Below the pieces are notes generated by a model that was not told the DNA's origin, did not search any database, and saw nothing but the letters and a program-made list of their open reading frames with translations. This document shows, piece by piece, positions 6,666 through 57,999 of a stretch of 64,000 bases of DNA. This DNA is from Escherichia coli (GTDB taxonomy: Bacteria > Pseudomonadota > Gammaproteobacteria > Enterobacterales > Enterobacteriaceae): assembly GCF_036507355.1 (NCBI RefSeq), contig NZ_AP027877.1, one strand, 5' to 3'. The translations under genes and the position numbers were made by a program. Within the stretch, counting starts at the first letter, position 1; the number at the start of each line of letters is the position of its first letter.

Positions 6666-8006
6666 ATGAGCTCTCAATTTACGACGCCTGTTGTTACTGA
6701 AATGCAGGTCATCCCGGTGGCGGGCCATGACAGTATGCTGATGAATCTGAGTGGTGCACACGCACCGTTCTTCACGCGTAATATTGTGATTATCAAAGAT
6801 AATTCTGGTCACACTGGCGTAGGGGAAATTCCCGGCGGCGAGAAAATCCGTAAAACGCTGGAAGATGCGATTCCGCTGGTAGTGGGTAAAACGCTGGGTG
6901 AATACAAAAACGTTCTGACGCTGGTGCGTAATACTTTTGCCGATCGTGATGCTGGTGGGCGCGGTTTGCAGACATTTGATTTGCGTACCACTATTCATGT
7001 AGTTACCGGGATAGAAGCGGCAATGCTGGATCTGCTGGGGCAGCATCTGGGGGTTAACGTGGCATCCCTGCTGGGCGATGGTCAACAGCGTAGCGAAGTC
7101 GAAATGCTCGGTTATCTGTTCTTCGTCGGTAATCGCAAAGCCACACCTCTGCCGTATCAAAGCCAGCCGGATGACTCATGCGACTGGTATCGCCTGCGTC
7201 ATGAAGAAGCGATGACGCCGGATGCGGTGGTGCGCCTGGCGGAAGCGGCGTATGAAAAATATGGCTTCAACGATTTCAAACTGAAAGGCGGTGTACTGGC
7301 CGGGGAAGAAGAGGCCGAGTCTATTGTGGCACTGGCGCAACGCTTCCCGCAGGCGCGTATTACGCTCGATCCTAACGGTGCCTGGTCGCTGAACGAAGCG
7401 ATTAAAATTGGTAAATACCTGAAAGGTTCGCTGGCTTATGCAGAAGATCCGTGTGGTGCGGAGCAAGGTTTCTCCGGGCGTGAAGTGATGGCAGAGTTCC
7501 GTCGCGCGACTGGCCTGCCGACTGCAACCAATATGATCGCCACCGACTGGCGGCAGATGGGCCATACGCTCTCGTTACAATCCGTTGATATCCCGCTGGC
7601 GGATCCGCATTTCTGGACGATGCAAGGTTCGGTACGTGTGGCGCAAATGTGCCATGAATTTGGCCTGACCTGGGGTTCGCACTCTAACAACCACTTCGAT
7701 ATTTCCCTGGCGATGTTTACCCATGTTGCCGCCGCTGCACCGGGTAAAATTACTGCTATTGATACGCACTGGATTTGGCAGGAAGGCAATCAGCGCCTGA
7801 CCAAAGAACCGTTTGAGATCAAAGGCGGGCTGGTACAGGTGCCAGAAAAACCGGGGCTGGGTGTAGAAATCGATATGGATCAAGTGATGAAAGCCCATGA
7901 ACTGTATCAGAAACACGGGCTTGGCGCGCGTGACGATGCGATGGGAATGCAGTATCTGATTCCTGGCTGGACGTTCGATAACAAGCGCCCGTGCATGGTG
8001 CGTTAA
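6666..8006 (+). CDS. gudD: Glucarate dehydratase GudD
   Basis: Start placed at [10 protein letters not shown] (ATG 6666) after an AGGA-type RBS; the track start at 6642 overlaps the gudX stop. Confidence 0.9.
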
Positions 8007-54480: not shown

Positions 54481-54888
54481 CTATGTGTTCATCATCTTGC
54501 GCACCAGCTGCACAAACAGCTCCTGCTCTTCTGCACTCAAACGCCCCAAAAATTCCTCATCCACGCTGTCACCAATCGGTATCGCCGCAGCAAGTATCTT
54601 TTCTCCTTCGGCAGTCAGCCAGACAAAGCGACGCCGCTTGTCAGCGGCATCATGTTCACGTCTGACTAAGCCACGATTCTCCATTCTTGCCAACATTTCT
54701 GCCAACGTTGCTTTGGTGCTGACTGCTGCTTCTATCAGTGCCACCTGTTCGATACCAGGCTTATCAGCAATGGCGCGCATCACCGCATACTGTGGTTTGG
54801 TCAGGTCAGGTAACTCGTGCTGCCAGCGAGCCGTGTGCTGCTGAAAAAGCTGTCGTAACTGATGGAACGCTTTATTTCGTAACGCCAT
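54481..54888 (-). CDS. MarR/SlyA-family transcriptional regulator, divergent from the decarboxylase operon
   Basis: 135-aa ORF with winged-helix region. Confidence 0.8.
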   Translation of the reverse strand: MALRNKAFHQLRQLFQQHTARWQHELPDLTKPQYAVMRAIADKPGIEQVALIEAAVSTKATLAEMLARMENRGLVRREHDAADKRRRFVWLTAEGEKILAAAIPIGDSVDEEFLGRLSAEEQELFVQLVRKMMNT

Positions 54889-55003
54889 GTAAACTCCGGG
54901 CTAATTCTCTGTCGCTATCATAGCGGTTTTTTAGTGACGAAGAAGATGTTGTTACTTTTCAATCCTTGCCGCTGTGGAAATGAAGGAGTATGTTAATAAT
55001 AAC

Positions 55004-55017
55004 GTTCGTATACGAAC
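55004..55017. promoter_or_regulatory. Perfect 14-bp palindrome GTTCGTATACGAAC, candidate MarR operator
   Basis: Read directly; 18 bp upstream of the ecdB ATG in the divergent intergenic region. Confidence 0.4.
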
Positions 55018-55034
55018 AATTAAGAGAATAAGCA

Positions 55035-55628
55035 ATGAAACTGATCGTCGGGATGACAGGGGCTACCGGTGCGCCTCTTGGTGTGGCATTACTGCAAGCG
55101 CTGCGGGAGATGCCGAATGTCGAGACTCATCTGGTGATGTCGAAGTGGGCGAAAACCACCATTGAACTGGAAACGCCTTACAGCGCCCGCGATGTTGCTG
55201 CCCTCGCTGACTTCAGCCATAACCCGGCGGATCAGGCGGCGACCATCTCCTCAGGTTCCTTTCGTACCGACGGCATGATCGTTATTCCGTGCAGTATGAA
55301 AACGCTCGCCGGTATCCGCGCTGGTTACGCCGATGGCCTGGTAGGGCGCGCGGCGGACGTCGTGCTCAAAGAAGGCCGCAAACTGGTGCTGGTGCCGCGT
55401 GAAATGCCGCTTAGCACCATCCATCTCGAAAATATGCTCGCACTTTCACGCATGGGCGTGGCGATGGTGCCGCCGATGCCTGCCTTTTATAACCATCCCG
55501 AAACGGTAGATGACATTGTCCACCATGTAGTAGCCCGCGTGCTGGATCAATTTGGCCTCGAACATCCCCACGCCAGGCGCTGGCAAGGATTGCCGCAGGC
55601 CCGGAATTTTTCTCAGGAGAATGAATAA
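55035..55628 (+). CDS. ecdB: UbiX-like flavin prenyltransferase (Pad1/EcdB)
   Basis: 197-aa ORF MKLIVGMTGATGAPLG…. Confidence 0.85.
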   Translation: MKLIVGMTGATGAPLGVALLQALREMPNVETHLVMSKWAKTTIELETPYSARDVAALADFSHNPADQAATISSGSFRTDGMIVIPCSMKTLAGIRAGYADGLVGRAADVVLKEGRKLVLVPREMPLSTIHLENMLALSRMGVAMVPPMPAFYNHPETVDDIVHHVVARVLDQFGLEHPHARRWQGLPQARNFSQENE

Positions 55629-57055
55629 TGGCATTTGATGATTTACGCAGCTTTTTACAGGCGCTTGATGACCACGGCCAGTTACTGAAAATCAGCGAAG
55701 AGGTGAACGCGGAACCGGATCTGGCAGCAGCAGCTAACGCCACCGGGCGTATCGGTGACGGCGCGCCCGCGCTGTGGTTTGATAATATTCGCGGCTTTAC
55801 CGATGCCCGCGTGGCAATGAACACCATCGGTTCCTGGCAGAACCACGCGATTTCCCTCGGCCTGTCGCCAAACACCCCGGTCAAAAAGCAGATTGATGAG
55901 TTTATCCGCCGCTGGGATAACTTCCCGATTGCCCCGGAGCGCCGCGCCAATCCAGCCTGGGCGCAGAACACCGTCGATGGCGACGAGATCAACCTGTTCG
56001 ATATCCTGCCGCTGTTTCGTTTAAACGATGGCGATGGCGGTTTCTATCTCGACAAAGCGTGCGTGGTTTCCCGCGATCCGCTCGACCCGGATAACTTCGG
56101 CAAGCAGAACGTCGGCATCTACCGCATGGAAGTGAAGGGCAAGCGTAAGCTCGGCCTGCAACCGGTGCCGATGCACGATATCGCCCTGCATCTGCATAAA
56201 GCGGAAGAGCGCGGTGAAGATCTGCCGATTGCGATCACGCTCGGTAACGATCCGATCATCACGCTGATGGGGGCCACGCCGCTGAAATACGAACAGTCTG
56301 AGTATGAAATGGCAGGTGCGCTGCGTGAAAGCCCGTACCCGATCGCCACCGCCCCGCTGACCGGTTTTGATGTGCCGTGGGGTTCAGAAGTGATCCTCGA
56401 AGGGGTCATCGAAAGCCGTAAACGCGAAATCGAAGGGCCGTTCGGTGAGTTTACCGGACACTACTCCGGCGGGCGTAACATGACCGTGGTGCGCATCGAT
56501 AAAGTCTCTTACCGCACCAGGCCGATTTTCGAATCGCTGTACCTCGGCATGCCGTGGACCGAAATCGACTACCTGATGGGGCCAGCCACCTGTGTGCCGC
56601 TGTATCAGCAACTTAAAGCCGAGTTCCCGGAAGTACAGGCGGTGAACGCCATGTACAACCACGGCCTGCTGGCGATTATCTCCACCAAAAAACGCTACGG
56701 CGGCTTTGCCCGCGCGGTGGGCCTGCGTGCGATGACCACGCCGCACGGTCTGGGCTACGTAAAGATGGTGATTATGGTCGATGAAGACGTTGACCCGTTC
56801 AACCTGCCGCAGGTGATGTGGGCGCTCTCCTCGAAAGTAAATCCGGCAGGGGATTTGGTGCAGTTGCCGAATATGTCCGTGCTGGAACTCGACCCTGGCT
56901 CAAGCCCGGCGGGGATCACCGACAAGCTGATTATCGACGCCACCACGCCTGTCGCCCCGGACAACCGTGGTCACTACAGCCAGCCGGTGGTGGATTTGCC
57001 GGAAACCAAAGCCTGGGCTGAAAAACTGACCGCTATGCTGGCCGCACGTAAATAA
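55628..57055 (+). CDS. ecdC: UbiD-family (prFMN-dependent) decarboxylase (YclC/EcdC)
   Basis: 475-aa ORF; TAATG overlap with ecdB. Confidence 0.85.
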   Translation: MAFDDLRSFLQALDDHGQLLKISEEVNAEPDLAAAANATGRIGDGAPALWFDNIRGFTDARVAMNTIGSWQNHAISLGLSPNTPVKKQIDEFIRRWDNFPIAPERRANPAWAQNTVDGDEINLFDILPLFRLNDGDGGFYLDKACVVSRDPLDPDNFGKQNVGIYRMEVKGKRKLGLQPVPMHDIALHLHKAEERGEDLPIAITLGNDPIITLMGATPLKYEQSEYEMAGALRESPYPIATAPLTGFDVPWGSEVILEGVIESRKREIEGPFGEFTGHYSGGRNMTVVRIDKVSYRTRPIFESLYLGMPWTEIDYLMGPATCVPLYQQLKAEFPEVQAVNAMYNHGLLAIISTKKRYGGFARAVGLRAMTTPHGLGYVKMVIMVDEDVDPFNLPQVMWALSSKVNPAGDLVQLPNMSVLELDPGSSPAGITDKLIIDATTPVAPDNRGHYSQPVVDLPETKAWAEKLTAMLAARK

Positions 57056-57065
57056 GGAGAACAAG

Positions 57066-57302
57066 ATGATTTGTCCACGTTGTGCCGATGAACAGATTGA
57101 AGTGATGGCGAAATCGCCGGTGAAAGATGTCTGGACGGTATATCAGTGCCAGCATTGCCTTTATACCTGGCGCGATACCGAACCGCTACGTCGCATCAGC
57201 CGCGAACATTATCCCGAAGCGTTCCGCATGACGCAGAAAGATATTGATGACGCGCCAATGGTGCCGAGCATTCCGCCGCTGCTGGCGGCAGATAAGCGCT
57301 AA
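57066..57302 (+). CDS. ecdD: Small zinc-ribbon subunit of the decarboxylase (BsdD/VdcD-like, EcdD)
   Basis: 78-aa ORF with CPRC…CQHC. Confidence 0.75.
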   Translation: MICPRCADEQIEVMAKSPVKDVWTVYQCQHCLYTWRDTEPLRRISREHYPEAFRMTQKDIDDAPMVPSIPPLLAADKR

Positions 57303-57342: not shown

Positions 57343-57999
57343 TTACTTTATTTTATAAAATGACAGCCGCCCGCTTTTCGGCGATCCGGTATCAATATAA
57401 ATCTGGTTAGCGAACGTCTGAATGTTATCAAGCATCATATGTCCAAATATAAAATAATCAGCGCCGTTTATTTGTTGTAACTCGCCATTAAGAGATTTCT
57501 GCACACGATCAACAGGCCAAAGTAATTCGCTCTCCGCTATTTGTTTGCCAAAGAGATATTCATTGCCCGGATAATCCGCATGTGCGATGACATATTTTAT
57601 AATGTCGTTGGTAATTTCAATAATATGTGGAAGTTGATGAAATTTCAGCAATAGACCTATAGCTTCTTTTTGTTCCATATCATTTAACTCAAAGAACCAG
57701 TCACCACCGCTGGCAAGCCACATATTGCCATCGCCGGTCGCGAACGCATCCAGCGCCATTGCTTCGTGGTTGCCTTTAACGGAGATAAACCAGGGCTGGT
57801 TTAGCAGGCGCAGGACGTCAAGACTCTCCGGCCCACGATCAATATTATCGCCGACAGAAATAAGTAAGTCGGTTTCGGGGAAAAAAGAGAGTTGATGTAA
57901 GCGGGATTGTAATAACTGATATTCACCATGAATATCACCAACGACCCATATATGGCGATAGTGATGGGCATTGATTTTTTGATAGCGTGTAGATGGCAT
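57343..57999 (-). CDS. pphB: Serine/threonine protein phosphatase 2 (PphB/PrpB)
   Basis: 218-aa ORF with metallophosphatase motifs GDIHG and GNHE. Confidence 0.9.
   Translation of the reverse strand: MPSTRYQKINAHHYRHIWVVGDIHGEYQLLQSRLHQLSFFPETDLLISVGDNIDRGPESLDVLRLLNQPWFISVKGNHEAMALDAFATGDGNMWLASGGDWFFELNDMEQKEAIGLLLKFHQLPHIIEITNDIIKYVIAHADYPGNEYLFGKQIAESELLWPVDRVQKSLNGELQQINGADYFIFGHMMLDNIQTFANQIYIDTGSPKSGRLSFYKIK

Follow-up and report, generated by a model that had tools for sequence, protein, structure and literature searches.

The palindrome and its genomic setting

The question raised by this locus is whether a short palindrome in the gap between a MarR-type regulator gene and a divergent operon is the operator of that regulator. 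The analysis covered a stretch of Escherichia coli DNA of 64,000 nucleotides, hereafter called the window. Upon reading the sequence, we found that GTTCGTATACGAAC, at positions 55004-55017, is a perfect palindrome of 7 + 7 bp with a spacer of 0, which can be divided into two arms and a central 4 bp (GTTCG-TATA-CGAAC). The palindrome does not extend past 14 bp, as C55003 and A55018 are not complementary. It is located inside the 146 bp (54889..55034) that separate the divergent MarR gene from ecdB, and 17 nt lie between its last base and the A of the ecdB ATG (55035). An earlier, sequence-only reading of this DNA had described a perfect 14-bp palindrome here, between the divergent regulator and the operon and 18 bp upstream of the ecdB start; the palindrome and its placement were borne out, and the distance is acceptable, with 17 nt intervening.

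By count alone, a 14-bp palindrome is unremarkable in the window, in which five perfect ones were observed against 4.66 ± 1.86 expected from Markov shuffles. When the 146-bp intergenic region itself was shuffled, at least one perfect 14-bp palindrome was present in 1.3% of the trials (P ~0.013). The evidence that goes beyond chance is the cross-genus conservation of the site and the published binding data, which are described below.

The gene on the minus strand (hosA, 54481..54888) is an intact, uninterrupted open reading frame of 135 aa that adjoins the site, and its product matched the Pfam MarR family with an E-value of 5.9e-12. The protein was identical at 133 of 135 residues (98.5%) to the PDB entry 8aga, "Transcriptional regulator HosA", which is accompanied by six further entries, and some sources give the name HosA to homologues of the window protein. 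On this identity, the product of the divergent MarR gene is HosA, a MarR-family repressor; the form encoded here carries the I98 and V126 variants. On the plus strand, the first gene of the operon, ecdB (VdcB; 55035..55628), encodes a UbiX-type flavin prenyltransferase of 197 aa (NCBIfam NF041206, 312 bits against a cut-off of 290) and is annotated in RefSeq as "non-oxidative hydroxyarylic acid decarboxylases subunit B". It is followed by ecdC (VdcC; 55628..57055, plus strand), which encodes a UbiD-family decarboxylase subunit (NF041204, 785 bits against 650), and by ecdD (VdcD; 57066..57302, plus strand), which encodes a small subunit (NF041205, 120.6 bits against 30). With the MarR match and all three Vdc matches above their cut-offs, the gene identities proposed by the sequence-only reading hold.

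The same four genes are annotated in E. coli in RefSeq, with rpoS on one side and pphB on the other. The segment was present in 2378 of 5426 complete E. coli genomes (~44%) and was absent from K-12, in which the match covered the pphB end only. The hosA-ecdBCD segment is strain-variable and lies in the polymorphic rpoS-mutS region; in the window, ecdD is followed by pphB and mutS (57343-57999 region), and in other E. coli sequences (L083, AREA_499) ygbN comes after the segment. The site controls a strain-variable operon that decarboxylates 4-hydroxybenzoate and related phenolic acids. The phenolic acid substrates include hydrolysed paraben preservatives.

Comparison with the published HosA operator

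Cao et al. (2018; PMC6261655) used recombinant HosA of E. coli UMN026 and DNA "containing 14-bp TFBS of HosA", which they termed palindromic. Binding of HosA to this site was demonstrated by EMSA and BLI, 4-hydroxybenzoic acid (4-HBA) dissociated HosA from it, and a Kd of 4.74 uM for the binding of 4-HBA to UMN026 HosA was obtained by ITC (PMC6261655). The probes listed in Table S1 of that article have the arrangement TAATAATAAC-[site]-AATTAAGAGAATAA and also TAATAATAAC-[site]-AATTAAGAGAATAAAC, with flanks as in the window, and their wider flanks (...TTTTAATAATAAC-[site]-AATTAAGAGAATAAACA...) are likewise the same in the window. The exact string GTTCGTATACGAAC is contained in probe T_H of the same table. 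It was not found in the main texts of articles, and this supplementary table (PMC6261655 Table S1) was the only place in which the sequence was found; a full-text literature search that paired ecdB with MarR returned nothing relevant, and the apparent mentions of HosA in PMC13253662 proved to be part of an author's name, Hosaka.

One detail of the table required interpretation. In the machine-read version of Table S1, both complementary oligonucleotides show the bold site as GTTTCGTATACGAAC (PMC6261655). This string cannot stand on both strands of a duplex, and it has 15 nt instead of 14; we therefore read it as an artefact of text extraction. The reading is supported by the 14 bp given in the main text, by the 14-mer in probe T_H and by the fact that the version with the 14-mer is natural genomic sequence. 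When the 59-nt probe was rebuilt with the 14-bp palindrome and matched against E. coli genomes, it was found at 59 of 59 nt, directly before the gene for subunit B. Identity was 100% in each of the 40 matches listed and reached at least 99% in 490 of the 1903 records that matched. Since the rebuilt probe is natural genomic sequence, the published HosA site is the palindrome of the window.

The UMN026 operator thus has the same 14-bp palindrome, the same flanks (TAATAATAAC ... AATTAAGAGAATAA) and the same position between hosA and subunit B. The two loci differ by a few strain-level substitutions, all outside the palindrome and none in the site; for example, the window has GTATGTTAAT where the probe has GTATTTTAAT, and AAGCAATG where the probe has AAACAATG. 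We conclude that the window site (55004..55017, unstranded) is the known HosA operator itself and not a lookalike, and that it is already known.

The primary HosA paper is Roy & Ranjan 2016 (Biochemistry 55:1120, pmid 26818787), as referenced in PMC6694116. According to the account of that work in bioRxiv 10.1101/2024.04.24.590444, HosA represses the hydroxyarylic acid decarboxylase (HAD) operon and autorepresses, 4-HBA releases HosA and induces the HAD operon, and the palindromic HosA site lies downstream of the transcription start site (TSS). For the near-identical UMN026 locus, site binding and release by 4-HBA are thus published (PMC6261655), as are, according to this secondary account, operon repression and autorepression. 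Both Cao et al. 2018 (PMC6261655) and Liang et al. 2019 (PMC6694116) used the HosA operator as the sensing element for 4-HBA, so that the HosA/operator pair is already in use as an in-vitro 4-HBA biosensor.

The sequence-only reading had proposed an operator for a MarR-type repressor that leaves DNA upon binding a phenolic ligand. The first part is supported by the identity of HosA, the published binding site and the comparative analysis, and the second by the published dissociation of UMN026 HosA by 4-HBA (PMC6261655). The experiments that it named are in essence already published for strain UMN026; a characterised operator was predicted correctly from sequence context alone.

Conservation of the operator across Enterobacteriaceae

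A scan by HosA alignment, with one genome per species, yielded 80 loci with homologues 60-97% identical, spanning Escherichia, Citrobacter, Salmonella, Klebsiella, Enterobacter, Kluyvera, Kosakonia, Phytobacter, Lelliottia, Leclercia, Atlantibacter and Rahnella. A divergent ecdB was present in 75 of the 80 loci. The intergenic comparison, which ranged from Escherichia to Rahnella, comprised 75 regions, namely the window and 74 loci. The arms GTTCG...CGAAC were unchanged in 71 of these 75 regions, and the other four differed by G1->A only. Otherwise, variation within the site was confined to the central 4 bp, which read TATA in 26, TACA in 22, TATG in 10, TGTA in 9, CATA in 3 and TGTG in 1; this is as expected if a dimer reads the outer half-sites. 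When the window was compared with the 63 non-Escherichia loci, identity was 100% in the arms, 83% in the centre and 46% over the remainder of the intergenic region. Positions 55004-55017 were the top-ranked 14-nt segment of the intergenic region for conservation, with a score of 0.951 against a median of 0.684.

At the level of sequence, the analysis shows the identity of the site and of the protein, together with strong purifying selection on the half-sites. Two features of MarR-family operators are found here: the half-sites are conserved along with the regulator across species, and the palindrome abuts the predicted core promoter. The conservation across Enterobacteriaceae also supports the transfer of the E. 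coli model to Klebsiella, Enterobacter, Salmonella, Citrobacter and Rahnella.

In five loci, the operon starts at ecdC and the palindrome is kept, 27-59 nt upstream of the ATG, which indicates that the site follows the promoter (the distance from the -10 element) and not the start codon. These loci (L052, L061, L067, L071 and L078), from Pluralibacter, Superficieibacter, Cedecea and one Rahnella, have the UbiD-type subunit C first, no ecdB/UbiX and a longer leader. In another locus (L069), the gap between hosA and ecdB is 598 bp long and the operator still lies 16 nt before ecdB.

A few individual genomes deserve mention. The E. coli O157:H7 strain F1273 (L081) carries GTTTGTATACGAAC, with C->T at the equivalent of window position 55007 and hence an arm reading GTTTG. 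We rejected this arm as a trait of the O157 lineage, since it was private to F1273 among the genomes checked. In O157:H7 strain ATCC 43890, the one other O157:H7 genome read, the site is normal; the remaining O157:H7/O145 genomes in the list each show a single difference somewhere in the 60-mer of F1273. The change in F1273 may be a mutation that relieves repression, or an error in the sequence. The metagenome-assembled genome "Citrobacter sp. HRGM_Genome_0066" contains two hosA copies (L001, L017), one Escherichia-like (97% HosA identity) and one Citrobacter-like, and the Escherichia-like copy has an extra A at about codon 14 of ecdB, an apparent frameshift; the two copies suggest a mixed bin.

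Predicted promoters and proposed mechanism

The hexamers of the ecdB promoter were assigned from cross-genus conservation. The predicted -35 element is TTGCCG (54966..54971, plus strand), of which TTG (54966-68) was 100% conserved in the 63 non-Escherichia loci, and the predicted -10 element is TATGTT (54989..54994, plus strand), conserved as TAnnTT, with T1, A2 and T6 at 100% and T5 at 90%. The two are separated by 17 nt. A sigma-70 consensus scan called no promoter in the intergenic region, since its threshold is 9 matching positions out of 12 and this pair has 8. From the conserved -35 and -10 elements, the TSS of ecdB is predicted at ~55001-55002 (A55001/A55002), which would place the palindrome at ~+3 to +16; 9 nt lie between the conserved -10 element and its first base. 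This predicted position is consistent with the "downstream of TSS" statement given for the primary work in bioRxiv 10.1101/2024.04.24.590444. Sequence and alignment further revealed a Shine-Dalgarno-like AAGAG for ecdB (55022..55026, plus strand), which is GAGG in most other genera.

On the hosA side of the gap, we found a conserved TATNATAGC element (54916..54924, minus strand), which was 87-100% conserved across the 63 non-Escherichia loci with the exception of its central N. It is enclosed by a second palindrome, CGCTATCATAGCG (CGCTAT-C-ATAGCG; 13 bp, 54912-54924), located 24 nt upstream of the hosA ATG. Six T residues follow CGCTATCATAGCG on the plus strand, and the scan flagged 54911-54927 as terminator-like. 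Most likely, TATNATAGC contains the -10 element of the hosA promoter (TATGAT, minus strand, 54922..54917); alternatively, CGCTATCATAGCG / TATNATAGC could be a binding site for another factor.

The palindrome is very probably the operator of the adjacent divergent HosA, at which the repressor blocks the ecdBCD promoter until 4-hydroxybenzoate releases it. A HosA dimer would sit on the invariant half-sites GTTCG and CGAAC, the centres of which are ~9-10 bp apart, i.e., one helical turn, a spacing that suits a winged-helix dimer with its two recognition helices. Bound HosA would cover ~+3 to +16, within the polymerase footprint and just downstream of the ecdB promoter, and may sterically prevent open-complex formation or promoter clearance (escape). 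The ecdBCD genes, which encode a reversible 4-hydroxybenzoate/hydroxyarylic acid decarboxylase, would thereby be kept off. When 4-hydroxybenzoate is present in the cell, it would bind HosA, HosA would leave the DNA and the operon would be transcribed.

A second HosA-type site in other genera

Many of the loci contain a second HosA-type site, GATCG-N4-CGAAC, which precedes the -35 element by 2-4 nt and the proximal operator by 56-57 bp; a second copy of the motif upstream of -35 was found in ~27-35 loci. With at most one arm mismatch, this distal site is present in Enterobacter, Kluyvera, Lelliottia, Leclercia, Pseudocitrobacter and Pluralibacter, and with two in Klebsiella (loci L015, L020-L022, L028, L030, L038, L040-L049, L051, L052, L054-L058, L063-L065 and L068). 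No such site is present in Escherichia, Salmonella, Kosakonia or the Citrobacter freundii group. The intergenic region of the window itself has no second HosA site at up to two arm mismatches, and the segment that aligns with the distal site (GTTGTTACTTTTCA, 54948-54961) is unrelated in sequence. Compared with the two-site genera, Escherichia has ~27 bp fewer between the hosA-proximal block and the position of the distal site, and it is also without TTAAAA, the -35-like element of the hosA promoter in those genera. Across the 64-kb window, GTTCG-N4-CGAAC with at most one mismatch occurred three times against 2.4 expected. The one-mismatch matches at 7675 and 38162 were considered as further HosA sites and dropped, as they are no more than expected by chance.

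It is conceivable, if rather doubtful, that two HosA sites (proximal and distal) are ancestral and that the single E. coli palindrome serves both operon repression and hosA autorepression, perhaps via a promoter on the minus strand. A possible candidate for such a promoter is TTAATT and TATTAT with a 16-nt spacer (55023..54996, minus strand), in which the spacer is the palindrome itself. If this is true, the single-operator arrangement would amount to a minor rewiring of a switch already known and not to a new kind of element. The additions that the present comparison makes to the known system are small: the cross-family consensus GTTCG-N4-CGAAC as read from the alignment, the distal site in many genera other than Escherichia and the conserved TATNATAGC element near the hosA start.

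Alternative explanations for the palindrome

The palindrome could in principle act mainly as RNA, forming a hairpin with a 5-bp stem and a 4-nt loop (GUUCG-UAUA-CGAAC) at the start of the ecdB mRNA that stabilises the transcript or modulates translation. With the predicted TSS, the mRNA would begin with such a hairpin, and the variable central 4 nt would form its loop. The predicted folding energy was -3.4 kcal/mol for the hairpin by itself and -4.9 kcal/mol in context, and it held 81% of the ensemble; however, the hairpin is weak, with a z-score of -1.75 in context, and 13 of 200 shuffles folded just as well. The Shine-Dalgarno sequence and the ATG are both outside the stem, and since AAGAG is outside the palindrome, the hairpin cannot mask it. 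As the arms are invariant, they show no covariation, and a DNA site and an RNA stem cannot formally be told apart by conservation alone. There were no compensatory stem changes in the 75 intergenic regions, and arms that are fixed at the sequence level point to base-specific recognition by a protein. The second motif copy upstream of -35 would be outside the ecdB mRNA altogether, and direct binding of HosA to the palindrome DNA has been published (PMC6261655). We consider a mainly RNA-based function very unlikely; an RNA role could at most be secondary to that of the HosA operator. A scan also reported a minus-strand terminator at 55018..55003, which we rejected, as its stem has 5-6 bp at -3.4 kcal/mol and no minus-strand gene reads into it. 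Neither a terminator nor an RNA regulatory hairpin was supported by the features examined, including compensatory substitutions in the 75 sequences, of which there were none.

Another regulator, i.e., a MarR/SlyA paralogue or a global factor, might bind the site in place of HosA. E. coli MarR paralogues, e.g., SlyA and MarR, can cross-bind AT-rich palindromes, and we found no specific support for such a factor at this site. On the other side, the site co-occurred with hosA in all 80 of the loci retrieved by HosA homology, the whole segment is missing from E. coli strains without hosA-ecdBCD, such as K-12, and HosA binds this DNA in vitro (PMC6261655). Recognition by a factor other than HosA is therefore extremely improbable. 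That the palindrome arose by chance and has no function has next to no probability and is refuted by conservation and published binding: the window-wide counts (five 14-bp palindromes against 4.7; three near-matches to the motif against 2.4) fit chance, but a palindrome in this particular intergenic region has a P of ~0.013, the arms are 100% conserved over ~70 species against 46% identity elsewhere in the gap, and HosA binding is on record (PMC6261655).

Distant analogues of the HosA switch

We compared HosA with other MarR-family repressors of aromatic-acid catabolic genes, namely PcaV from Streptomyces coelicolor (PDB 4fht/4g9y), which responds to protocatechuate, and HpaR, the repressor of the homoprotocatechuate operon. 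As with HosA, a hydroxybenzoate-type ligand releases these repressors from a palindromic operator. PcaV was among the three closest solved structures after HosA (E = 3.3e-16), together with two unnamed MarR-family entries (2.4e-16 and 4.3e-16), and HosA matched the HpaR family with E = 2.6e-14 and 53 bits, below the cut-off of 121. Both are distant from HosA and have other target genes and operator sequences, and the likeness is drawn at the level of the regulator.

The best NCBIfam match of HosA, at 88 bits, was to the BagL/FevM MarR regulators, which lie beside UbiX/UbiD genes in the bagremycin/ferroverdin clusters of Streptomyces, and EcdB of the window also matched BagM/FevK with 342 bits; neither match reaches its family cut-off (230 and 420 bits, respectively). 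Those clusters are biosynthetic, whereas hosA-ecdBCD is catabolic, and the two are likened by their genes alone. Taken together, the HosA match to BagL/FevM and the EcdB match to BagM/FevK show that a MarR-UbiX-UbiD neighbourhood recurs.
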